This document shows, in pieces, positions 12,748 to 24,072 of a stretch of DNA of 64,000 bases. The notes under the pieces were generated by a model. That model had not been told where the DNA came from, did not search any database, and saw nothing but the letters and a program-made list of their open reading frames with translations. Each line of letters opens with the position of its first letter. Within the stretch, counting starts at the first letter, position 1. Location: contig CAYNVS010000005.1 of the NCBI GenBank assembly GCA_964400725.1, positions 8,632 to 72,631 of the forward strand. The letters are read 5' to 3'. Source of the stretch: an uncultured Myxococcales bacterium. Its GTDB lineage: Bacteria > Myxococcota_A > SURF-8 > CAYNVS01. A program made the translations under genes and the position numbers.

Positions 12748-14007
12748 CTACTTGTTTTCAACGAAAGTAATCGTCAGCAGATAAATCTGCGTTCCTTTTT
12801 TACTGGTCTGTCCCGACAGCCACGTCGTATCCGTCATATCGAGCGGATTGGTGTAATTCGCCAGTAAAAAGGCATGCGCGTCGATGCGGCGGACGGCCAT
12901 GAAAGCGTTGTCGCCGCAGCCCGGCAAATCAAATACTTTTTCTACTTTGCGGGCGTCGCGGTTGATTTTATACAGCGCGCTCCCCTTGGGGCGCAGCGAA
13001 TAATCGACCAAATACTTGCTTTTTTGCTCGTCGAACGTCAACTCGCTTTTTCCTTGGTCGTAGGGGCCGCCTACGTCCCGGCGCGCGGCGAGGTAAATAT
13101 CGTTTCCGTGCCGAAACATCTCCGGCGAGTCGTAACGGTTTGGATCGCTTTTAGGCGAACATTCCCACTCCGAAAGAGCGTTTTTAGGCGCAAAGCAAAC
13201 GTGCGAACCGAAACCGGTCGCGTCGCCGTCCTCGTTGCGGGTAACGGCCCAAAGGTTTCCTTCGGCGTCGAACTCGAACGCGACTTCCGACACGCCCCCC
13301 TTGTAAACGTAATCCTTGCCGTTTACCTTTGTAAAGTTCTCGCCGTCTTCCGACTCTTTAAAATAAACTTCAATCTCCGAAGTTCCCGTCTCGTAATGGT
13401 TTCCTTTATAGGAAGTCATATAAACCCTGCCGTTGCGGACTTTTATGTCCCACGGAACTTCGCCGGCGTCAACCGCAAGCTCCGGCGCGCTCCAATCGCC
13501 GAGAGAGGCTCGCTTCACGCGCCACATCCCTTTAGGCTCGAAGGTAAACATGTCCGTTCCCGCCTCGAAGAAATACAGCCATATCCGGCCTTTGTAAGCC
13601 AGAAAGCGCGGCTCGCGCACGTCGGCGTCAACCGCTATTTCGCTCTCGAACTCCCACGTGGCGCCTTGGTCGAGGGATGAGGCGATTAACATTCGCGTAT
13701 ATTCGGAGGCGAAGTGATTGGGAGCGGTGCGCCACGCCATAAAAAGGCGGCCGTCGAAAAAGATAATATCGACGTTGTTGTTGGAGGCTTCGAGTTTGAT
13801 GGACGAGGGCAGCCCGGCGGAGGGAACGACCCAGCGGGGGGCGGAGGCTTGGGGCGTATACGTCTTATGATCGTCCGTAAAGTAATCGCCGGGGTCGTCG
13901 GATGGCACTTCTCCCGGCGCATCCGCGGAAGACGAGCCAGACGAACAACCGGTTAATAAGCAAAGCTCGGCGGCGGCGGCCAATAAAACGATAGCGATTA
14001 CGCGCAT
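12748..14007 (-). CDS. BNR/Asp-box repeat lipoprotein (sialidase-like beta-propeller)
   Basis: Lipobox LLTGCSSGSSS. Asp-box motifs SLDQGATWEF and SEDGENFTK. Confidence 0.55.
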   Translation of the reverse strand: MRVIAIVLLAAAAELCLLTGCSSGSSSADAPGEVPSDDPGDYFTDDHKTYTPQASAPRWVVPSAGLPSSIKLEASNNNVDIIFFDGRLFMAWRTAPNHFASEYTRMLIASSLDQGATWEFESEIAVDADVREPRFLAYKGRIWLYFFEAGTDMFTFEPKGMWRVKRASLGDWSAPELAVDAGEVPWDIKVRNGRVYMTSYKGNHYETGTSEIEVYFKESEDGENFTKVNGKDYVYKGGVSEVAFEFDAEGNLWAVTRNEDGDATGFGSHVCFAPKNALSEWECSPKSDPNRYDSPEMFRHGNDIYLAARRDVGGPYDQGKSELTFDEQKSKYLVDYSLRPKGSALYKINRDARKVEKVFDLPGCGDNAFMAVRRIDAHAFLLANYTNPLDMTDTTWLSGQTSKKGTQIYLLTITFVENK

Positions 14008-14057
14008 GGTTTGTTCCTTGAATGGTTTGACCGAGTTATATAATTATTGACTTAAAC

Positions 14058-14837
14058 CTATTTAAATTTTCCAAAATAGCCGTCGATTTCAGGTCTTAAT
14101 TCAATGCCGGCCATTTCAAAGCAATCAAGCAATTCGTCGTAAGTATTTTGCCCGCCCAGAAAATCCCAGAATTCGCGCCCGACCATCAATTCGCCGTCAA
14201 AATCGAGCATGCCTTTTAACGTCCATCGTTCGTATGGTTCCGGCTCGTAAGGATTGTAAGGAATAGCAATGCAGGACTGAACTTTTGCGGCTGGATATTC
14301 CGTTAAATAAAGCGCCGCCCACTCAAGCAGCGTGCGTTTAAAATCCTTGAAATTGCTCACGTTCGGTGTTGCCGTTTTTAAATCAAACATGTAAACCGTT
14401 CCGTTTTTGCTTTTTAAAAACAAATCAACTTTTACGGTTTTCAAAGCGTTTTTCTGACCGCTCTTACAAAATTTTCTAATTCTTTCAATTTCTTCCAATT
14501 TGTTAGGAGCGCTGTTTTTGCTTGTTGATAAATGATTTATAATACGTTGAATTTCTTTTTGCGCGTCTTCGTAAATAGCGTTTGGCAATTTATATTGTTT
14601 TTCCGCAGCTTCAAAAGTTGTTTTCGCAATCGCAACCGCTACCGGTTCATATATTGAGGTTCCGAATGTTGTATTGAGCGATTGTATAAAAGAAAATAAA
14701 GCCATTCTATCTTTTCCTAAAAGCCTGTAATGGAAAGGCATAGAATTGGTTTCCGGAGTATAGTTTTTGAATTTTTCTCTGAGAACGCTTGTAATGATAT
14801 TCTTGATTTCGATTTTTTGGTTAGAAGAAAAGGGCAT
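14058..14837 (-). CDS. type II restriction endonuclease candidate (PD-(D/E)xK fold)
   Basis: Low-GC gene immediately downstream of the methyltransferase (taaATG junction). The putative catalytic motif is VDLFLKSKNGTVYMFDLK, i.e. D...DxK. Confidence 0.5.
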   Translation of the reverse strand: MPFSSNQKIEIKNIITSVLREKFKNYTPETNSMPFHYRLLGKDRMALFSFIQSLNTTFGTSIYEPVAVAIAKTTFEAAEKQYKLPNAIYEDAQKEIQRIINHLSTSKNSAPNKLEEIERIRKFCKSGQKNALKTVKVDLFLKSKNGTVYMFDLKTATPNVSNFKDFKRTLLEWAALYLTEYPAAKVQSCIAIPYNPYEPEPYERWTLKGMLDFDGELMVGREFWDFLGGQNTYDELLDCFEMAGIELRPEIDGYFGKFK

Positions 14838-15213
14838 TTATTTTTCCTTTAGATGAAAAATAATTTCGGCATAGGCGGTAGATCTGTCCTTTTCGACGCG
14901 GTTTAATACCGGCCTCTTGAATCGCTCGACAATTTTCATTCCCGATTTTTCCGCAATTAGCGGATAAAGATTAAATTTATCGTTGGCTACCAAAAAAACA
15001 TCATAATTATCTTGAAGATATTTTTTGCAATTATTTAAAACCGAGGATATTCCAGCCGCATACGCTTCCTTGGCGGCTTTTGTCTGTCCGTTTAAAAGAC
15101 GTCCTATTTCTTGTTCGTCTTTTCTTTCAAATCCAAATATTTCATACGCGTAAGCGTGCTGCTCGTGGTAATCAATTACCCCGACATATGGAGGACTGGA
15201 GAAAATGCCCTTA
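14838..15213 (-). CDS. DNA methyltransferase C-terminal catalytic segment (motif IV SPPY) in +1 frame relative to the upstream segment
   Basis: Translation KKKKIKGIFSSPPYVGVIDYHEQHAYAYEIFG... shows SPPY (motif IV), typical of N6-adenine/N4-cytosine MTases. The segment has no start codon of its own. It opens right after an in-frame stop inside the A8 tract and ends at a taa directly abutting the REase ATG. Confidence 0.6.
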
Positions 15214-16440
15214 ATCTTTTTTTTCTTTTATAAGTTCAGCCAATTTGGCGTTTTTTTGTTCGACTTCGGCTATTAAATCAACGGTAGAGCTGTCCGCCGC
15301 CAAACAAATTTGGAATGTATCCGTTCTTAATTTATCAAATTCAATAATTCTTTTTATGGAATCGTTCGAATATCTTATCCACCAGTCTAGAATTGAGAAC
15401 AACGGTTTGCATATTTTGCCGTGTTTCTTGCAGTAATATGTTCGAGTTACAGGTTCCTTTAAAGTGCCTAAATCGGCGTGAGTCGTAGCCCTGCACGACC
15501 TAGCGGTGCGGCTTAAAATAACCGCTAAAACTTTTTTAAGGTTTTTATCCTCAACGTTTTTAATTTCATTAAAAACAAAGTCGATTTCGTTTCTAACCGG
15601 CAGTAAGTACCATGTCGCCAGAAAAGAGTCGTTTTCTTTTTTGTATATTTCCAACTTGTATTCTTCAACCAAAGAATAGTATATAGGAAGAAATTCATTC
15701 TCACATCGCGTCGAATACTCGCCCTCTTCAATTTCTTTCAAATTGATTTTACGTCTATAATCGGGAGACGGAAAATATTTCTCGTTAAATTTATCAAGTT
15801 CGCATTGCAGTCTCTTTTCAAAAGCGGCGTTTATATTGTTTTTATTAAATTCAATTAATTTAACCGTTATCTGATTGATTATTCTGTTTAGTCTGGCAAC
15901 GTCATGTCGTTCTATTTTTACGTTTGAAATCATAGCGTTAAAGGCCGAAATATCCGCTCCTACCGCATGAATTCCCAATTCATTTGCCTGCACAAGCGTG
16001 GTTCCGCTTCCGGCAAAAGGATCTAAAATAATATCGCCTTTTGTAAAATATATAGTCTTTTTATAGTCGTCGACGCGCGAGTCCAGAAAATATTCCACTA
16101 ATTGCGGAATGAATTTACCTTTATATGGATGGATACGATGGACGTGTTTAGTTCGTTCAGATTCAGAATATTCCGAAAATGATAATTTCCAATTTAAATC
16201 TTCGCCCAGCGCTTTTTTCCAATCGCATTCGTTTTTAATTTGGTCGTAATAACTTTTCAGCTCATTAATATCTACGCAGGTCGAGCCGTTAAATGAATAT
16301 TTTTTTACTTTGCCGTATTGCAGCAAATAAGAAATATTTGAAATCGAAACCGGACGATTATTATATTGCGTCGCCCAAACGCTTGCTTCTTTCAGCTTTA
16401 CAAGACTTGCGTCTTTGTCTTCGGAAGTTCTGAAAACCAT
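15211..16440 (-). CDS. DNA methyltransferase N-terminal segment (motif X/I DPFAGSGTT plus TRD), alpha-class organisation; interrupted by frameshift
   Basis: HPYKGKFIPQLVEYFL...ILDPFAGSGTTLVQANELGIHAVGADIS gives the AdoMet-binding motif I block. About 270 aa of variable TRD follows. The ORF ends ...AELIKEKKD at the A8 run, with the SPPY segment in the next frame. Confidence 0.7.
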   Translation of the reverse strand: MVFRTSEDKDASLVKLKEASVWATQYNNRPVSISNISYLLQYGKVKKYSFNGSTCVDINELKSYYDQIKNECDWKKALGEDLNWKLSFSEYSESERTKHVHRIHPYKGKFIPQLVEYFLDSRVDDYKKTIYFTKGDIILDPFAGSGTTLVQANELGIHAVGADISAFNAMISNVKIERHDVARLNRIINQITVKLIEFNKNNINAAFEKRLQCELDKFNEKYFPSPDYRRKINLKEIEEGEYSTRCENEFLPIYYSLVEEYKLEIYKKENDSFLATWYLLPVRNEIDFVFNEIKNVEDKNLKKVLAVILSRTARSCRATTHADLGTLKEPVTRTYYCKKHGKICKPLFSILDWWIRYSNDSIKRIIEFDKLRTDTFQICLAADSSTVDLIAEVEQKNAKLAELIKEKKD

Positions 16441-16544
16441 TAAAATTAACTTCTTTTCATTTTAAAGCTATAAAAACTAAACAACGATACAACGTTTTTC
16501 CTAATAGAGTCAAGCATAAGCTATTGCTATATAATTATATAGCG

Positions 16545-18746
16545 TTATAACCCCGCCCTCGCTACCTTTATAACGCCGCGCACTCGCCGCAGGGCCGCAA
16601 CAAGCTTCTCAAGCTCGGCTACGCCGTTTACGTGCGCGGTAAAAATCATCGTGGCGGCGGCGTCAACGGTTTGCAAGTCGGCGGCGACAATGTTTACGCT
16701 CATTTTCCTAAAAACCTCGCCAATGGCCGAAAGCATTCCGGGCTTGTCCGCCGTGGTTACGCGCAGCCGAACGCGCATCGCGCCCCCTTGGCCCGCCCAC
16801 TTCGCGCTGACAAGCCGGTCGGGTTCGTTGCGCGGAACGCGGTCGCAGTCCCGGCGATGCACGGTTACCCCGCGCCCGCGGGTTATATAGCCGATTATTT
16901 CGTCCCCTACTATCGGAGAGCAGCAGCGCGCGTAATTTACCAACATGCCGCCAACCCCTTCGATTATCACGTCCCCCTTCAGTTTGCCGGCGCTCGCGGG
17001 CATCTGCGCGGGCTCGACGTCCTGCGCGTTCACCAAATCTTCAATGCGCTCCTCAACCGCGACGAAGACTTCGCGTTCCGGCAGCAACATTTTTACCAAA
17101 GAAGACGCGGTCAGCGTTCCGCGGCCCAGACACAAATATAAGTCGTCAATCGTCCGTTTGTTGGTTTTTTCCAACATTTGAGCCACCGCGGTCTGGTCTT
17201 TTAGCGCCTTTGAGAGGCTCGTATCCTTTTCCTTCAGCGCCTTTTCCAGCAGCTCGCGCCCCAGCTCTTTGTCCGCCTCGCGCCGCTCTTCGGTGAGAAA
17301 GTGCTTTATTTTGGCCTTGGCGCGCTCGGTTTTGACTATATTTAGCCAGTCCTTCGACGGTTTCCCCTTCGGGTGAGTGATTATCTCGACGGTGTCGCCG
17401 TTCTTCAACGCGGCGTCTATCGTGCTTATGCGCCCGCCGATTTTCACCCCCACGCACCTGTCGCCGACGCTGGAGTGAATCGCGTAAGCGAAGTCGAGAG
17501 CCACGGCGCCCTTCGGCAGCTCGCGGACGTCTCCTTTGGGAGTAAAGACGAACACCTCGTCGTCGAACATGTCGGTGTGCAGCGCGTCGAGCAGCGCCGG
17601 ATCGGACAAGTCCTTGCCCGCGGCTATGGCTTCGTGCAGAGAGCCGTAGCTCTTTACCCCGTCGGCTTTTACCTTTCCTTCTTTATAAATCCAGTGCGCC
17701 GCTACGCCGTGCTCCGCGATTTCGTGCATTTCGCGGGTGCGGATTTGTATCTCTATCCGCTCGGCGTTTGGGCCGATGACCGCCGTATGCAGCGATTGAT
17801 AGCCGTTAGGCTTGGGCGCGGCTATATAGTCGTCGAACTGCCCCGGTATAGGGCGGTAGGCGGAGTGAACCATGCCTAGAACCTGGTAGCATTCGTGTTT
17901 TTCTTCCACGATGACGCGAAAGGCGGTAATATCGTAAAGTTCGTCAAAGTCCAGCTTGCGGCGTTCCAGTTTTTTTTGAATCGACCAGAAATGTTTCGGT
18001 CTGCCCGAAATTTGTCCTTTTATTCCCGCATCTGCGAGCAGTTTTGAAAGCTCTTCCTTAACGTTGGATATGTATTCCTCGCGGGCGCTTCTTTTAAGGG
18101 CGACGAGGCTTTTAAGCTCGTTGTAACGCTCCGGCTCTAAAAATCGAAACGCTAAATCCTCCAGCTCGCTTTTTATGGAATAAACTCCCAAACGATTTGC
18201 GAGCGGCGCGTATATCTCTATGGTTTCCTTGGCTATTTGCAGCCTCACGTCCGGTTCGAGGTATTGCAGCGTGCGCATGGAGTCGAGCCTGTCGGCGAGT
18301 TTGATAAGCAGAACGCGTATGTCTTTTGCGAGCGTGAGCACGAGGCGTCGGAAGCTCTCCGGCTGGTTTGAGCCGCCGTGGCGGTAGCTGTACTTGCTTA
18401 TCCTCGCCGCGCCCGCCACTATCTCGGCCGTTTTAGAACGAACTTCCGGCAGGGACGCGATTTCTTCCAAGGTAGTTTTTTCCTCCTCAAACGGCGCAAG
18501 CAGCAGCGCGCCTTGAAGAGACGACAAATCGAGCTTCAGCTCCGACAGCGACAACGCCATTCCAAGCGGGTGAACGACGAACGGATCGCCGGATGCGCGC
18601 TTCAAACCCTCAAGTTTATTGTGAGAAAATTCAATCGCCGCCGAGAGCATGAGCATCTCGTCCGGTTTGAGATAAGCGCCGGCGTTTTCAATTAGAGCAA
18701 ACTTAAGCTGCTCCGCCGTCGCTCTTTTTATGTCCGAAATCGACAT
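16545..18746 (-). CDS. relA: RelA/SpoT-family (p)ppGpp synthetase with degenerate HD hydrolase motif
   Basis: Synthetase motifs LYDITAFRVIV and YQSLHT, with TGS and ACT C-terminal domains. The hydrolase HD dyad is replaced (FVVHPLGMA...LLLAPFEEE instead of LLHDvvEDT). 733 aa. Confidence 0.85.
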   Translation of the reverse strand: MSISDIKRATAEQLKFALIENAGAYLKPDEMLMLSAAIEFSHNKLEGLKRASGDPFVVHPLGMALSLSELKLDLSSLQGALLLAPFEEEKTTLEEIASLPEVRSKTAEIVAGAARISKYSYRHGGSNQPESFRRLVLTLAKDIRVLLIKLADRLDSMRTLQYLEPDVRLQIAKETIEIYAPLANRLGVYSIKSELEDLAFRFLEPERYNELKSLVALKRSAREEYISNVKEELSKLLADAGIKGQISGRPKHFWSIQKKLERRKLDFDELYDITAFRVIVEEKHECYQVLGMVHSAYRPIPGQFDDYIAAPKPNGYQSLHTAVIGPNAERIEIQIRTREMHEIAEHGVAAHWIYKEGKVKADGVKSYGSLHEAIAAGKDLSDPALLDALHTDMFDDEVFVFTPKGDVRELPKGAVALDFAYAIHSSVGDRCVGVKIGGRISTIDAALKNGDTVEIITHPKGKPSKDWLNIVKTERAKAKIKHFLTEERREADKELGRELLEKALKEKDTSLSKALKDQTAVAQMLEKTNKRTIDDLYLCLGRGTLTASSLVKMLLPEREVFVAVEERIEDLVNAQDVEPAQMPASAGKLKGDVIIEGVGGMLVNYARCCSPIVGDEIIGYITRGRGVTVHRRDCDRVPRNEPDRLVSAKWAGQGGAMRVRLRVTTADKPGMLSAIGEVFRKMSVNIVAADLQTVDAAATMIFTAHVNGVAELEKLVAALRRVRGVIKVARAGL

Positions 18747-18797
18747 GCGCCGCCTTGCAACTTCCTGAATAAAAGCGGCTTTTTAACCGCGGTTTCG

Positions 18798-20510
18798 TCA
18801 GTCGGCGAGCAGCTTTTTAAGGCTGGTGAGAATATTCAAAGGCGTAAAATCCTTGGCGCGCTCGCTCTTTTCAATAATGTAGGTAATTATCTCTTTGGTT
18901 TTGTCAAGAGAATCGTTGATGACTATGTAATCGAACTTAGCGTACTGCCTAATTTCGGCCTTAGCGATGGAAAGCCTTCTCTCAATCTCTTTGGGGTCGT
19001 CGGTTTTGCGCTCGCGCAGGCGGCGGGCGAGCTCTTCGTACGAAGGCGGCAGGATGAAAATAAGCTCCGCGTTGGGGAAGCGCTTGCGTATCCCGTCGGC
19101 GCCCTGAACGTCTATGTCCAGCACGGCGTTTTTACCGGCGTTGAGTATATCGTTGACCGACCGCCAAGAAGTTCCGTAATAGTGAAGCCCGTACACGAAC
19201 GCGTGCTCCGCAAATTCGTCGTTCTCGACCATTTTTTTAAAGGTCGTCTCGTCGACAAAGTGATACTCCCGTCCGTTTTGCTCGTTGCCGCGCGGCTTGC
19301 GCGTGGTGTGGCTTATCGAAAGCGAGAAATCGGGAAATCGCTCAACGATGAAGTTGCAAATTGTGGACTTCCCCGCGCCCGACGGGGCGGATACGACTAG
19401 AACTCGCGGAGGGGGAAGTTTATCGTCAATGGTAAAGTCATCTGAGTTGGACTCGTGTGAAATTTTATTTGCAATGTTAGAATCATCTTGATCAATCATC
19501 GAAGGCTCTTCATCCTGACTAGGAAGATATTTTAACAAATTATAGATTTCTTTATGTTCTCTGGGCATGCAAGATCGGGAGTCGTTACAGATATAAGGCT
19601 CAATAATCCCAAGCTCAGAAGGAAGTTGGTCTCTAATTTTTCTTAAATCATTTTGAAATTCTTCATCCTTGATTTGCATTGGATCTGGGTTTCGCCATTT
19701 AAAAAGTTTCACATTTAACTCTGTTTCCCAATGATTTGGTCTAATGGGATTAGAGTAAGTGACCCAAATAATAGGATAAGGGAAATCATTCCAAACTCCT
19801 TTAAGTTTTTCATAGCCAACAATTTTACCTTTAATAGCACAGGGAATACTTTTTTCACCAAGTAATTGAGCTAAATCTAGAGAGATTACCATTAATTCCG
19901 TATAAGAATATTTTGAAATCCTAAAGCCTATGTCAATTTCTGGGCCAATATAATCAATAACTTTATTTTCGCCTTCATTGCCGGCACTTAATGATAACTC
20001 AATTTCTCGATTTCTAATTGGAAAACCTGCTGTCCAGCCCGCACCTTTTAGCCGCAAACTTGGTTTGGAAATACCCTCAATAGTTTTTAAAAAACATTCA
20101 GTAATATTTGTTATCTCTTCACGGTTGTCTACAGCGTAGGTGTAAAGTAACTCATCGCCCAATATTTTCCAGATCCTTCCTTTTTCAAGCAATTTTTTTT
20201 CTGTTTTTCTAAGATGTTGTTTAAACTGACTATTAAACTGCTTAAAAGTTGTTTCTATGACAGTTTGCCAATTATAAGTCTCTTTGGTGATGTTTGCTAA
20301 TATATGTCCTATACCACTTTTATTATCTAAATTTTTATATAAACAATCGCTTGGAGATATATTGTTCGCCTCTAGGTAGGATAGGACAATGTCTTTCCTT
20401 TCCTTATATATTTTTAGAAGGCGTTCATGGTTAAATACGGATTTTAAAGCGGTCGAATTTTCTATATCAACACTTAGAAACAGCCTAAATGTCGGTTTTA
20501 AAGCTTGCAT
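18798..20510 (-). CDS. gmk: chimeric protein: novel low-GC N-terminal region (aa 1-370, weak nucleotidyl-cyclase-like D...GD...R motifs) fused to guanylate kinase (aa 375-570)
   Basis: C-terminus VLVVSAPSGAGKSTICNF...HTTRKPRGNEQNGREYHFV...YGTSW...LDIDVQG is canonical Gmk encoded in GC-rich DNA. The N-terminal ~1.1 kb is conspicuously AT-rich and encodes FRLFLSVDIENSTAL...WKILGDELLYTYAV...IDYIGPEIDIGFRISKYS. It is one continuous ORF. Confidence 0.7.
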   Translation of the reverse strand: MQALKPTFRLFLSVDIENSTALKSVFNHERLLKIYKERKDIVLSYLEANNISPSDCLYKNLDNKSGIGHILANITKETYNWQTVIETTFKQFNSQFKQHLRKTEKKLLEKGRIWKILGDELLYTYAVDNREEITNITECFLKTIEGISKPSLRLKGAGWTAGFPIRNREIELSLSAGNEGENKVIDYIGPEIDIGFRISKYSYTELMVISLDLAQLLGEKSIPCAIKGKIVGYEKLKGVWNDFPYPIIWVTYSNPIRPNHWETELNVKLFKWRNPDPMQIKDEEFQNDLRKIRDQLPSELGIIEPYICNDSRSCMPREHKEIYNLLKYLPSQDEEPSMIDQDDSNIANKISHESNSDDFTIDDKLPPPRVLVVSAPSGAGKSTICNFIVERFPDFSLSISHTTRKPRGNEQNGREYHFVDETTFKKMVENDEFAEHAFVYGLHYYGTSWRSVNDILNAGKNAVLDIDVQGADGIRKRFPNAELIFILPPSYEELARRLRERKTDDPKEIERRLSIAKAEIRQYAKFDYIVINDSLDKTKEIITYIIEKSERAKDFTPLNILTSLKKLLAD

Positions 20511-20518
20511 TATCGGGG

Positions 20519-21040
20519 TTAATCGTTAAAAAGTGTTTTTGATCTTATTTCTATTGCATGGACAGAAACCCTAAAAAATGAGGACAGCAAACTTTTATCC
20601 GCAGAAAGTTCTTTGTATTTTTTTTCAAAAACAATTTTAGGCATCAAAAAGGCAGCGGCGAATCTGTTAGCTTGCCATTCCTCTTTATTTGATCCTTGCC
20701 GATAGAATGTTATTGGTTCTTCTTCGCCTGTTTGAGCGTCATAATGTAAAAAATAATGACCTAACTCATGCGCAATGGTAAAATTATCTCTTAGAGAAGT
20801 ATCAAAAGGGACTAATAAAATCGAGAAATCGTTTTTCTTTCGAATAATTAATGACGCCGGAGAAAAAATATTATCCGACAAAGACTCAATCTTTCCACCG
20901 AGAAGATTTACAACAGTATTTAGAAATGGTCTAACCTCATCTTCATACTTATTCGCATCTTTTTCAAAATGCATTCTAGCTTTGCCAGCTAAAGCCTCTA
21001 TTTTTTCATTACTGAAAAAAAGTAGTTTTTTTCTACCCAT
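20519..21040 (-). CDS. ImmA/IrrE-family (DUF955) zinc metallopeptidase
   Basis: HEXXH-type signature FTIAHELGHYFLHYDAQ. Start set at the second ATG (MGRKKLLFF), which is preceded by GAGAGGAGAG. Low-GC gene 8 nt upstream of the chimeric gmk gene. Confidence 0.65.
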   Translation of the reverse strand: MGRKKLLFFSNEKIEALAGKARMHFEKDANKYEDEVRPFLNTVVNLLGGKIESLSDNIFSPASLIIRKKNDFSILLVPFDTSLRDNFTIAHELGHYFLHYDAQTGEEEPITFYRQGSNKEEWQANRFAAAFLMPKIVFEKKYKELSADKSLLSSFFRVSVHAIEIRSKTLFND

Positions 21041-21170
21041 ATTAGCTCTCCTCTCAACAAACACACAATAATATTAAAAAGCTTAACCAGCTTCTTGTCA
21101 AGCGATATTATAAAATTATAACAAATTAAATAATATTAAGCCAATATTAAGGCTTGTTTAACAAGATAAA

Positions 21171-22793
21171 TTACTTGATATTCCACGTTTTCCAATCTCC
21201 GGGGGGCGGCATGACCGGATTTTCCTTGAAAGCCCTTACCACCGCCTCGAAGACGGTAACGCCCATGTCTATCGACGGGCTCTTTTTCAGCATGTAATAT
21301 CCGTCGCCGCCGTTAGCCAAAAAAGTTATGGTTGCGACGGAGTACGTTTTATCGACCTCCAGCGGACGGCCTCCTATCATCACGCGGTAAATTTTGCCGT
21401 CTTTTGCGTAAACGCGCGCCCCCGCAAGCTGCAAAAAGCCTCCTTTGAGCTTCGCTTCCTTGTCGAGCCTCGAAAGGGACTCCGAAAGTATCATCAGCAG
21501 TTTGTCGCCGGTCATTTCAAGCCGCAGTATTTGGTTGGGAAAAGGCAGCGCGGAAACGATGTCGAGGTAACGCACGTCTCCTTTTTCAATCGGAGCGCGA
21601 ATCGCTCCGGAATTTATAAACCCGACGTCCGCCTTCCCTTCTTTTCTTATTATCTCGGCTATCATGGTTCCCAGCTCGAAACTTCCCGCCTCGCCGCCGT
21701 GATCGTAATTTAAAGCAAGGTCTTTCGTCAGCTCGCCCGCCTTTTGCGGCATCGAATTTTTCGCCAGCGAAACGAATTTCTCGACTATTATTTCAACCTG
21801 CGGGTCTTTTTCAATTTTCTCGGTTACAAATATCTCGCGCGCTTCTTCCACGTAAGAAGAGCCGCCTTCAAGAATAATTTTAATCTTTCCAACGATTCCT
21901 CCGTGCGCCTGAGCCTGCGCGACGAATATTCCGCGCCCCTTGGGCGGCGTGATTAGTTTGTGCGTGTGTCCGCCGACAACGCCCAATATGGGAATGGGCG
22001 TATTCGTTTTGGAGAGCTTCTCCGCAAGCGCAAAGTCTTCCTCGTCTCCCATGTGCGAAACGATTAAGACGTAATCGTGAGTCTCCGCAAGCGTAGGCAG
22101 CAAAGAGTCAAGCGTTTCCATCGGATCGGCGAAAGCTAGTCCTTCTACGTTTTTCTCGTCCGTCAACAGCGGCGTCTGAGCGTTGGCAATGCCGACGAGA
22201 GCGATTTTCTTTCCGCCTTTCGTAAAAAAGCTGGCGTAGGGCGCGAAAAGCGGCTTTCGCGTTCCTTCGTATAAAATGTTCGCCGCGATAATCTTAAACT
22301 CCGCGCCGCGAGCGAGCTGTAAAAGGCGCTCCTTGCCGTAATCGAACTCGTGGTTGCCCACGGTCATTACTTCCAGCCCTACCGCGTCCATCGCCTTAAA
22401 TTCCGCCATCCCTTTGGTAAAAAGAGACTGCGGAGTCCCTTGCATAACGTCTCCGGCGGCTATAAAAAGCGCGTCGCATCCCAAAGAATCGGCTTCCGCC
22501 TTCTCTGAGTTGATTACCGTTTTAATGCGGGACGCTCCTCCGCGGTAACTTCCGGCTCCCGCGCCGGTAGGGGTAATATGGCAGTGAAAGTCGTTGATGT
22601 GAAGAATTACAAGACATTGTTTGGAGTTGTCGGAAACTAAAGAAGGAGCCTGCCCGCACGAAAAAAATACCGCCGCCGAAACGGCTATTAAAACAAGCGC
22701 CAACTCAAACGCAAAAAAGTTCGGTTTGCCTCTTTTTATTACGCTTCCGCCCCCAGCCGCCGGCTCGTTCGCCGATAAAAACATTTTATTCAT
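21171..22793 (-). CDS. bifunctional metallophosphatase / 5'-nucleotidase (UshA family), secreted
   Basis: LHINDFHCHI and GNHEFDYG metallophosphoesterase motifs, N-terminal TM/signal segment, and a C-terminal 5'-nucleotidase domain. Confidence 0.85.
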   Translation of the reverse strand: MNKMFLSANEPAAGGGSVIKRGKPNFFAFELALVLIAVSAAVFFSCGQAPSLVSDNSKQCLVILHINDFHCHITPTGAGAGSYRGGASRIKTVINSEKAEADSLGCDALFIAAGDVMQGTPQSLFTKGMAEFKAMDAVGLEVMTVGNHEFDYGKERLLQLARGAEFKIIAANILYEGTRKPLFAPYASFFTKGGKKIALVGIANAQTPLLTDEKNVEGLAFADPMETLDSLLPTLAETHDYVLIVSHMGDEEDFALAEKLSKTNTPIPILGVVGGHTHKLITPPKGRGIFVAQAQAHGGIVGKIKIILEGGSSYVEEAREIFVTEKIEKDPQVEIIVEKFVSLAKNSMPQKAGELTKDLALNYDHGGEAGSFELGTMIAEIIRKEGKADVGFINSGAIRAPIEKGDVRYLDIVSALPFPNQILRLEMTGDKLLMILSESLSRLDKEAKLKGGFLQLAGARVYAKDGKIYRVMIGGRPLEVDKTYSVATITFLANGGDGYYMLKKSPSIDMGVTVFEAVVRAFKENPVMPPPGDWKTWNIK

Positions 22794-22813: not shown

Positions 22814-23884
22814 TCAATCGGCCGCCAACGGCCTTTCTTCTTCCATTTTAACCAGCCGCGCCGCCGCAAACCCTTTATCTACCTTAACCTTTCCTCCGCC
22901 GCGTTCCGGCGCGTCGAATAGAACGTCGCTCATAATTTCCTCTATGATGCCGCGAAGGGCGCGCGCTCCCAGCTTTTTTTTATGAGCGTATTCGGCTATT
23001 TCCCAAAGAGCCTCGTCCTCAAACGCAAGCTCTACGTTGTCTCGCGACAGCAGCTCTACGTACTCTTTCACGACGCTGTCAGGCGGGTCTTTTAAAATGC
23101 GGAACAACGCCTCGGCGTTCAAAGCGTCGAGCTCTACCACCACCGGAATGCGCCCCAGAAGCTCCATTATCATTCCGTATTCGGTCAGCTTTTTAACCGT
23201 AAGGCGTCTGACGGTTTTCTCTTTTTTGGCGTTAAAGCCAATCCCGCCTTGGTCCCGGTAATCCCAAACGTCGCTGAAGGTGCCCGCGCAAATGAAGAGA
23301 ATATTTGAGGTATCGACCTGCGTGAAGTCGTGCTTGCTCCAGTGCTGCGTTACGTCCAGCGGGACGAATATTTTCCTCCCTTCAATTATTTTAAGAAGAG
23401 CCTGCTGCACGCCCTCGCCGCCGATGTCGCGCGAGCCCGCGCCGGTGCGCATTCCGCCGTTGCGGCGCGCCAGTTTATCTATTTCGTCTATGAAAATTAC
23501 GCCGCGCTCGCATTCGGCGACGTCCAGTTCGCAGGCGAACAGCAGCTCGCCCACCATGACTTCCACGTCTTTGCCGTAGTAACCCGCCTCGGTGTACTCG
23601 GTGGCGTCGGCGACGGTCATTTTAACGTCAAGTATGCGCGCTATGTGCCTTGCAATGTGCGTCTTGCCGCAGCCGGTAGGCCCGGCTAAAAGAATGTTTG
23701 ACTTGCGAAGAAGCGTGTTCTCGCCCGCCGTTACTGCGTTGACTCGTTTTATATGATTGTAGGCCGCTATTGCAACCGCTTTCTTGGCGTTATCCTGCCC
23801 GACGACGTATTTGTCCAGCTCTTCGTAAATCTGCCGCGGAAAAAGCGGAGGAAGAGATTTTTTTACTTGATGCTTTAAAACCAT
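22814..23884 (-). CDS. clpX: ClpX-like AAA+ unfoldase lacking the N-terminal zinc-binding domain
   Basis: LPPLFPRQIYEELDKYVVGQDNAKKAVAIAAYNHIKR, Walker A GPTGCGKT, pore loop GYYG and IGF loop (GGIGFNA) are all ClpX-like. Starting from MVLKHQ (RBS GAGAGG) there is no C4 zinc finger. Confidence 0.75.
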   Translation of the reverse strand: MVLKHQVKKSLPPLFPRQIYEELDKYVVGQDNAKKAVAIAAYNHIKRVNAVTAGENTLLRKSNILLAGPTGCGKTHIARHIARILDVKMTVADATEYTEAGYYGKDVEVMVGELLFACELDVAECERGVIFIDEIDKLARRNGGMRTGAGSRDIGGEGVQQALLKIIEGRKIFVPLDVTQHWSKHDFTQVDTSNILFICAGTFSDVWDYRDQGGIGFNAKKEKTVRRLTVKKLTEYGMIMELLGRIPVVVELDALNAEALFRILKDPPDSVVKEYVELLSRDNVELAFEDEALWEIAEYAHKKKLGARALRGIIEEIMSDVLFDAPERGGGKVKVDKGFAAARLVKMEEERPLAAD

Positions 23885-23994
23885 ATGCGACCTCTCGGCG
23901 TAAAAAAACAAATTTACAGCCGCAGTTTATATTACTAGACAAAAAATTTAAAGAAATTAGTTTAACGCCGCGGGAAAAGTTGAGAAGGCGGAAA

Positions 23995-24072
23995 TGGAGG
24001 GAACGCTCGGAATTGAACCGAGAACCTTCGGGGCCACAACCCGACGCTCTAACCAGGTTGAGCTACGTTCCC
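23995..24072 (-). tRNA. tRNA-His (anticodon GTG), CCA encoded, no encoded G-1
   Basis: Manual fold: acceptor GGGAACG/CGTTCCC, D-arm GCTC-AACCTGGTTA-GAGC, anticodon stem TCGGG/CCCGA with loop TTGTGGC, variable loop AGGTT, T-arm CTCGG-TTCAATT-CCGAG, discriminator T, then CCA. Confidence 0.8.

Follow-up and report, generated by a model that had tools for sequence, protein, structure and literature searches.

The DNA described here is a 64,000-nucleotide (nt) stretch of contig CAYNVS010000005.1 (assembly GCA_964400725.1, positions 8,632 to 72,631 of the forward strand; the whole stretch is referred to as the window) from an uncultured Myxococcales bacterium, in which the conserved genes gmk and spoT, encoding guanylate kinase and a (p)ppGpp synthetase/hydrolase, are flanked by two segments of low guanine-cytosine (GC) content. 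The first holds a restriction-modification (R-M) cassette and the second a two-gene module, namely an M78 zinc metallopeptidase and a protein of the CHD family with a predicted nucleotidyl cyclase fold, the latter joined in frame to gmk. Every gene between 12.7 and 25.3 kb, and each gene and motif located below, is on the minus strand, and from low to high coordinates, i.e., against transcription, the order is lipoprotein-like gene, restriction endonuclease (REase) gene, split methyltransferase (MTase) gene, spoT, a 570-amino acid (aa) open reading frame (ORF) ending in gmk, M78 peptidase gene, 5'-nucleotidase gene, clpX-like gene, tRNA-His and cysK. The native spoT gene (16545-18746; GC 0.561) encodes a bifunctional SpoT/Rel enzyme of 733 aa with HD_4, RelA_SpoT, TGS, AH/RIS and ACT domains.

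GC content was measured over the whole window by a 1-kb sliding profile and by 500-bp binning. Values below 0.42 were found in eight of the 128 bins, all eight of which fall inside the two segments, and the bins outside them have a mean of 0.529 (standard deviation 0.040, minimum 0.428). Segment 1 (14008-16544), the R-M cassette extending from the stop codon of spoT to the beginning of the lipoprotein gene, has a GC content of 0.366 (z = -4.1), and segment 2 (19406-21182), 1777 nt of foreign DNA, one of 0.332 (z = -4.9). At third codon positions (GC3) the four cargo genes have values of 0.25-0.39, compared to 0.60-0.68 in spoT (0.68), the gmk domain, and the 5'-nucleotidase, lipoprotein and clpX-like genes. 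The initial annotation had described two independent, foreign, AT-rich segments with defence- or regulation-type cargo and no mobility genes, and this description holds: the deviations are real, the coordinates it gave (14036-21170) match the outer borders within ~30 nt, both segments are foreign by composition, with the insertion of segment 2 additionally shown by empty-site alleles, and no integrase, recombinase or transposase is present between 6 and 35 kb of the window. It had further placed the segments on either side of spoT, which is correct for segment 1, but segment 2 lies upstream of gmk and not directly upstream of spoT. The ‘ImmA-fusion' that it named was a misreading, as the ImmA-like gene is not fused and it is its downstream partner that is fused to gmk.

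The insertion of segment 2 can be followed to the nucleotide in strains that do not carry it. A contig of the same species from another metagenome (L018) is 100% identical to positions 21222-21183 and 99.8% identical to positions 19405-18468 of the window, and the 1777 nt that separate these two stretches in the window correspond to 97 nt in the contig. The arrangement of L018, with the 5'-nucleotidase gene, 97 nt, gmk and spoT, is shared by two sister-species contigs (L016 and L017, ~85% identical), and in relatives further removed, whose SpoT is 52% identical, yicC, a gmk of 216 aa and spoT follow one another without the insert. In the empty site, the 97 nt are made up of the final three codons and the stop codon of the 5'-nucleotidase gene (ALK*), the intergenic region and codons 1-4 of gmk (MENK). 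Read from the sequences, the native intergenic region contains a TTGCTC-17-TATTAA element that is conserved between both species and is probably the native gmk promoter, removed by the insertion. The left junction follows ...AAAACGTGG (21183), after which the insert supplies NIK*, i.e., the final three codons and stop codon of the otherwise native 5'-nucleotidase gene (21171-22793), and the right junction falls just before GAGTTCTAG (19405). No repeats flank segment 2 in a search for matches of at least 14 nt, which returned nothing at the borders of either segment. Comparison with the empty-site alleles of the same species and of the sister species thus proves segment 2 to be a strain-specific and recent replacement-insertion. 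Mechanistically, illegitimate recombination would have put a 1.8-kb segment in the place of 97 bp at the boundary of the 5'-nucleotidase gene and gmk. Unlike the remainder of the insert, its final ~15 nt (CTTCCCCCTCCGC, 19406-19420, encoding LPPP) are GC-rich and may represent filler DNA made at the illegitimate junction. A further contig (L004, JGI 3300023207), 100% identical to positions 16401-19378, stops 27 nt before it would reach the module junction at one end and extends 40 nt into the MTase gene at the other. Mixed alleles, or AT-rich DNA being poorly covered in this sample, may account for these ends; as evidence of mixed alleles they were set aside as inconclusive, since they lie 27 nt and ~140 nt off the actual junctions.

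The result of the insertion is a chimeric 570-aa ORF (18798-20510), which is identical in two other assemblies and consists of cyclase-fold residues 1-368 followed in frame by Gmk residues 369-570. Its native gmk part, from codon 5 to the stop codon (18798-19405), matches PF00625 (E 1.1e-47, profile positions 3-181 of 182) and is 99.8% identical to L018 by blastn, while tblastn aligns residues 373-570 of the fusion at 100% identity to residues 5-206 of the standalone Gmk encoded on L018 (P0242, MENKRVLVV...). The 570-aa protein also shares a 90%-identity cluster with two standalone guanylate kinases of 206 aa, P0242 being one of them. The Guanylate_kin domain is complete and its P-loop (GAGKS) is present, starting 8 codons past the junction. 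The native ATG-GAA-AAT-AAA and 85 nt upstream of it are deleted, which leaves gmk without a start codon and probably without a promoter of its own, and there is no in-frame ATG, GTG or TTG from the junction to the P-loop, so that translation of an active Gmk must begin inside foreign DNA. From the cyclase fold to the P-loop, a canonical start codon occurs in frame just once, as the ATG of Met338 (19497-19499), which is preceded 6 nt upstream by GAAGAG and could yield a 233-aa Gmk with a foreign leader of 31 aa.

Nearly all bacteria depend on guanylate kinase for viability. We infer that a junction had to be in frame to survive selection for Gmk function, and such selection would explain the in-frame fusion without any adaptive value, with the disordered, variable tail of the cyclase-fold protein presumably serving as the linker. 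Inside the insert, upstream of the M78 gene, a consensus scan found a promoter-like site (21115-21144; TTGGCT-18-TATAAT with a TG extension, 10/12 matches), which most likely drives M78, CHD::gmk and possibly spoT. Transcription of gmk, and probably of spoT, would now start from this insert promoter or depend on read-through. The 51-nt spacer between gmk and spoT contains a native terminator-like hairpin (18775-18790; GCGGTT-AAAA-AGCCGC followed by a T-run), seen in a consensus scan only, which could attenuate read-through into spoT. As a consequence of the fusion, the module would no longer be precisely deletable without killing the cell.

The first gene of the module (20519-21040) has a good ribosome-binding site and encodes an M78 (ImmA/IrrE-like) zinc metallopeptidase of 173 aa with an HELGH motif (PF06114, E 1.8e-17); its stop codon lies 8 nt ahead of the CHD start codon. 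In PADLOC the peptidase matches capP (1.5e-20) and RmrA (1.8e-14), both over the catalytic core only, and it scores 51.7 bits against the NCBIfam spr1629 antitoxin model, for which the cut-off is 335. The CHD-family part (19407-20510) lacks a stop codon of its own and comprises a core fold (residues ~5-255) that includes a helical insert of ~80 aa, followed by a C-terminal helical region and a tail that is disordered from residue 338 onwards. Neither this protein nor any of 61 homologues has a meaningful match in Pfam, NCBIfam, PADLOC or PDB sequences, and none of the 62 members matches PF00211 at E <= 1; a match to PDC-S46 in one of the 62 (E 5e-4) was dismissed as chance. The sole family match is PHROG 18024, to which no function is assigned there. 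An AlphaFold model built from the 62 sequences has a mean predicted local distance difference test score (pLDDT) of 88.4 and a predicted template-modelling score of 0.85, with a disordered tail (338-365, pLDDT below 50), and the top 50 Foldseek matches of this model are all class III cyclases (E ~1e-8). By structure prediction, the CHD protein is thus assigned the class III nucleotidyl cyclase fold.

In the alignment, the family-invariant motifs are F11-L-S-x-D15...S19, W114-K115-x-x-G-D119-E120 and D193-x-x-x-R197, and the window copy keeps all 26 invariant family residues. Judged from motif and secondary-structure order rather than from superposition, D15 and D119 would be the metal-binding Asp residues, K115 the base-contacting Lys, and D193 and R197 the equivalents of the α4 Asn/Arg pair. 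The family differs from class III cyclases in lacking a PF00211 sequence match, in carrying the helical insert of ~80 aa between α1 and β2, in the replacement of the transition-state Asn by the invariant Asp193, and in having an extra C-terminal region of ~80 aa followed by the disordered tail. Pycsar pyrimidine cyclases differ from the module in having an adjacent effector that senses cyclic nucleotide monophosphates (transmembrane or TIR), which is absent here.

When clustered at 50% identity, the CHD proteins recovered by a profile search amount to 2050 representatives, and 895 of these match at E <= 1e-30. The homologues are standalone proteins of ~370-420 aa, and all eight homologue loci with available upstream DNA have a co-directional M78 gene as the next gene upstream. 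The module is found in the Desulfomonile tiedjei chromosome (L011; CP003360, 1605594-1607385) and on a plasmid- or prophage-like contig of Leptospira. In Leptospira phage LE1 the pair adjoins cI and the peptidase is annotated as ‘immunity region protein', and in Clostridioides difficile phage phiCD27 the interval from the integrase to the lysis genes contains genes for a ‘metallo-protease' and for a hypothetical protein of 528 aa. For plasmids of Leptospira, Tistrella, Sphingomonas and Mycolicibacterium, the evidence consists of matches to the CHD protein. The CHD versions of C. difficile phages (phiCD27 orf37, L028 2734-4320; phiC2, CDKM9 and phiCDHM19) have 528 aa, ~140 aa above the usual length, and no Pfam match; the annotation ‘putative Nudix hydrolase' on one C. 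difficile phage record was not confirmed. No third conserved gene was seen beside the pair in the loci inspected, and no description of an M78-cyclase defence pairing was found in the literature searched.

Several known systems resemble the module in part. RosmerTA and related pairs of COG2856 (ImmA/M78) antitoxins and toxins (Millman, 2022, preprint 10.1101/2022.05.11.491447; Ernits, 2023, PMC10440598) are likewise two-gene, co-directional cassettes on phages and plasmids, in which an M78 zinc peptidase is combined with a partner of unknown function. However, the peptidase of the module has only 173 aa, matches the RmrA profile at positions ~186-293 of 394 and lacks the helix-turn-helix (HTH) region, and its partner is a cyclase-fold protein of ~390 aa, with none of the 62 members matching RmrT or any other PADLOC model. 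CapP, which together with CapH regulates CBASS (Lau, 2022, preprint 10.1101/2022.04.27.489752), is the top PADLOC match of the peptidase and shares with it an HExxH M78 catalytic domain and a tie to a nucleotide-cyclase-type enzyme. In contrast to CapP/CapH, the module peptidase lacks a GAF domain, as it matches the capP profile only at positions 25-149 of 242; an HTH substrate gene, a CD-NTase and an effector are missing as well, and the peptidase gene is co-directional with and coupled by overlap to its partner instead of divergent from an operon. IrrE/DdrO and ImmA/ImmR are M78 regulators that are also close to the module, which has no HTH partner. Because the defining features of RosmerTA and CapP/CapH are missing, the module is treated as a new variant that belongs to neither.

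By analogy with ImmA, IrrE, CapP and RmrA, the module may be a toxin-antitoxin (TA)-like or abortive-infection unit, a tentative assignment for which the odds are judged to be slightly short of even. The cyclase-fold protein, in which D15, D119, K115 and R197 are conserved, would be a nucleotide-converting effector, and the M78 peptidase would restrain or activate it upon a phage or DNA-damage cue, possibly via the disordered tail. Some observations speak against such a function, or at least against its persistence in the window: neither an effector nor an HTH partner is present; the transition-state position is occupied by Asp (D193) across the whole family; and among the 59 strongly conserved columns, the window copy has 6 departures from the consensus (median of the other members, 1), one of them being G18N in the D-I-x-G-S-T motif, so that it may be enzymatically dead or impaired.

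The main rival to this effector/sensor mechanism is lysogeny control, in which the pair would be a regulator of lysogeny and induction of temperate phages, composed of an ImmA-type anti-repressor and a signalling protein, and the window copy a functionless remnant. M78 peptidases classically cleave repressors of phages or of integrative and conjugative elements, the LE1 pair is annotated as ‘immunity region' next to the cI repressor, and the phiCD27 pair adjoins the integrase gene. Nevertheless, this alternative is considered rather unlikely. The pair stands alone in chromosomes without a nearby prophage or repressor (Desulfomonile L011, L009 and the window), and no HTH ORF was found beside the peptidase in any of the loci inspected for it (the window, L011, L012, L028 and L029). 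Moreover, the phiCD27 pair is located in the accessory region between lysis genes and integrase, and such a region is the usual seat of morons and defence genes.

The other foreign segment, the R-M cassette, is ordinary in comparison. Its REase gene (14058-14837) encodes an apparently intact type II enzyme of the TdeIII family (259 aa; PF09520, E 1.3e-88, profile positions 2-242 of 242), with homologues that are 64-69% identical over 100% of the length in Caldisericum, Desulfurella, Zixibacteria, Chloroflexi, Actinobacteria, Bacteroidia, Jettenia and Methanosarcinales archaea, i.e., in at least eight phyla including archaea. The R-M description in the initial annotation has to be amended, as the MTase gene is frameshifted. 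The N-terminal part of this N6/N4 MTase (15211-16440; 409 aa) carries the S-adenosylmethionine (AdoMet) motif DPFAGSGTT and ends at a premature stop codon (PF01555; PADLOC MTase_II PDLC03249, E 4e-157, profile positions 15-416 of 541), while the C-terminal part (14838-15227), with the catalytic SPPY motif, lies in another frame, its last 51 aa matching positions 491-540 of 541 of PDLC03249. The frame is broken at an A8 homopolymer (15217-15224; T8 on the plus strand), in which one extra A shifts it and A7 would restore a protein of ~540 aa; no intact MTase with AdoMet and (S/D/N)PPY motifs in a single frame is present. Translation of 14838-15230 gives a second frame that is open from the A8 run through to the stop codon and has no start codon ahead of SPPY, so that the C-terminal part cannot be made separately. 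The A8 tract is also present in JGI and Logan assemblies (L021 and L022, 100% identical to the window) and is therefore not a one-off assembly slip, although these assemblies and that of the window may share related read sets. The MTase gene may be a fixed pseudogene, may be phase-variable at this tract or may be rescued by slippage during transcription. An active REase would be expected to kill a cell that lacks the cognate MTase, and an intact-looking REase next to a broken MTase thus implies that the system is silent, protected by another MTase, phase-variable or slippage-rescued. The one-base expansion of the A-tract, which breaks the MTase before SPPY, would accordingly leave a system that is decaying, phase-variable or rescued only by slippage.

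The cassette is bordered by an 11-bp direct repeat, ATAATTATATA. One copy, at the REase-distal border (14037-14047), lies within the spacer of 50 nt that precedes the lipoprotein gene, and the other, at the spoT-proximal border (16528-16538), within the spacer of 104 nt that separates spoT from the MTase gene. These are the only two exact copies in direct orientation in the window, the sole further match lying on the opposite strand, where it overlaps the second copy through a palindrome. A direct match of at least 11 nt between the two border spacers arose in 55 of 20,000 shuffles (p ~0.003), the repeat having been spotted by eye first and tested afterwards. The repeats fit target duplication or short-repeat recombination and predict an empty spoT-lipoprotein spacer of 46 nt, which would read CGCTAT-ATAATTATATA-ACTCGG... 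from the spoT stop codon towards the ATG. A signature of horizontal transfer in the cassette is supported by its deviant GC content, by the flanking repeats and by the cross-phylum distribution of the REase, compared to a neighbouring SpoT whose nearest relative in a database of 5.8 billion proteins is only 53% identical. Scans of genome collections and metagenomes for SpoT likewise returned distant matches only (36-45% identity), with exact-peptide patterns being too specific for this sparsely sampled lineage. A 2.5-kb cassette composed of a TdeIII-family REase and an α-class N6/N4 MTase would thus have been acquired into the spoT-lipoprotein spacer. Mobile type II R-M units flanked by short direct repeats are known from comparative genomics of R-M systems. 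Segment 1 resembles them in its compact REase-MTase pair, deviant GC content, cross-phylum spread and flanking direct repeats, but differs in that the MTase is frameshifted at A8 while the REase looks intact, and in that an empty site was not recovered.

Taken together, we are confident that two separate horizontal acquisitions flank the native gmk-spoT genes and that insertion of the module captured the start of gmk. This reading is weakened at some points. For the R-M cassette, the empty-site allele was not recovered, as the conspecific contigs (L004, L020, L021 and L022) all bear the cassette, and its junctions consequently rest on composition and the 11-bp repeat; in the one sister-species contig available for this site (L019, SRR28229721, ~84% identical), the gene content is different, with the end of a GH5-like gene that is not in the window (L019 3-269) lying 9 nt before the lipoprotein gene. 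For gmk, the sequence would allow Gmk to be made either as the 570-aa chimera or from Met338, and no second gmk copy is present within the window, although one may exist elsewhere in the genome.

The initial annotation had gone further and proposed an integration hotspot or defence island around spoT, with a nearby tRNA-His in a supporting role, i.e., that defence cargo repeatedly lands at the gmk-spoT flanks. Two foreign, defence-type cassettes do bracket one conserved operon within 7 kb, and the GH5-like gene of the sister species indicates that the lipoprotein flank is variable. We nevertheless consider a genuine hotspot improbable, and the proposal is not upheld. Besides the lack of mobility genes noted above, the borders of the two segments share no sequence and their junctions differ in type, with 11-bp direct repeats at the R-M cassette versus a repeat-free replacement of 97 nt at the module. 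None of five related loci (L014, L015, L016, L017 and L018) has an insert or any alternative cargo at the gmk site, and only one cargo type was seen per site. The tRNA-His(GTG) gene (23995-24072), the only hit of an Rfam scan, adjoins neither insert; it lies 2.8 kb beyond segment 2, with two native genes in between. These genes keep their synteny in the strains with an empty site, where the 5'-nucleotidase gene directly abuts gmk, and an attachment site at this tRNA gene is thereby ruled out. Two modules within 7 kb can be a coincidence, and their co-location is best read as coincidence or permissive intergenic DNA rather than as a dedicated hotspot.

Another alternative, which we regard as improbable, is that the cyclase-fold::Gmk protein is more than a by-product of the insertion, namely an adaptive bifunctional enzyme that couples a cyclase or signal synthase to the conversion of GMP to GDP beside the (p)ppGpp enzyme. 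The ORF is intact and identical in three assemblies, all invariant family residues are kept, and the 528-aa homologues of C. difficile phages indicate that the family tolerates C-terminal extensions. However, the fusion appears to be unique: it was not found among 162 word-indexed homologues, which all have 243-420 aa and no precomputed Pfam domain and are too short to include Gmk, nor among the best 150 of ~2050 family representatives (234-466 aa). In addition, a conspecific strain is unfused at only 0.2% divergence, which argues for a very recent event, the linker is a disordered tail with a pLDDT below 50, and the window copy has an excess of substitutions at conserved sites. The last alternative, mis-assembly or chimeric contigs, might be raised by the metagenomic origin of the window and by the ends of L004 near both low-GC borders, but its likelihood is negligible, since JGI and Logan contigs that are 99.98-100% identical to the window span all four junctions (L005 and L006 both junctions of segment 2, which excludes mis-assembly there, together with L021) and the reading frames run on across the right junction.

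Two of the neighbouring genes have features of their own. The product of the clpX-like gene (22814-23911; 365 aa) matches ClpX profiles from about position 59 onwards (NF003745, positions 59-400 of 418), and its N-terminal zinc-binding domain seems to be missing. The lipoprotein-like protein (12748-14007; 419 aa), whose gene adjoins the R-M cassette, has no Pfam or NCBIfam match, and its signal-peptide region is the part that diverges most between strains and sister species.

Segment 2 reveals a widespread, unannotated two-gene module that is present in LE1, in temperate phages of C. difficile and on plasmids, and the larger of its proteins, with a class III cyclase fold that sequence libraries miss, makes it a candidate for a nucleotide-based defence or TA system. 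It is conceivable, albeit doubtful at present, that the M78 and cyclase-fold pair represents a new family of phage- and plasmid-borne defence or TA systems that act via a divergent class III cyclase and that has become welded to gmk in this bacterium. If this were true, the host could not lose the module, and expression of Gmk, and possibly of SpoT, would depend on the promoter of a defence module, an ‘essential-gene capture' that would link nucleotide or stringent-response metabolism to a mobile immune module. With both alleles available, the locus offers a recent natural experiment, in which the 5' end of an essential gene was lost to a mobile module that has persisted fused in frame to the rest of the gene. 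Selfish cargo can, as this illustrates, become fixed once it has taken over an essential function, and it can also rewire the gmk-spoT promoter.

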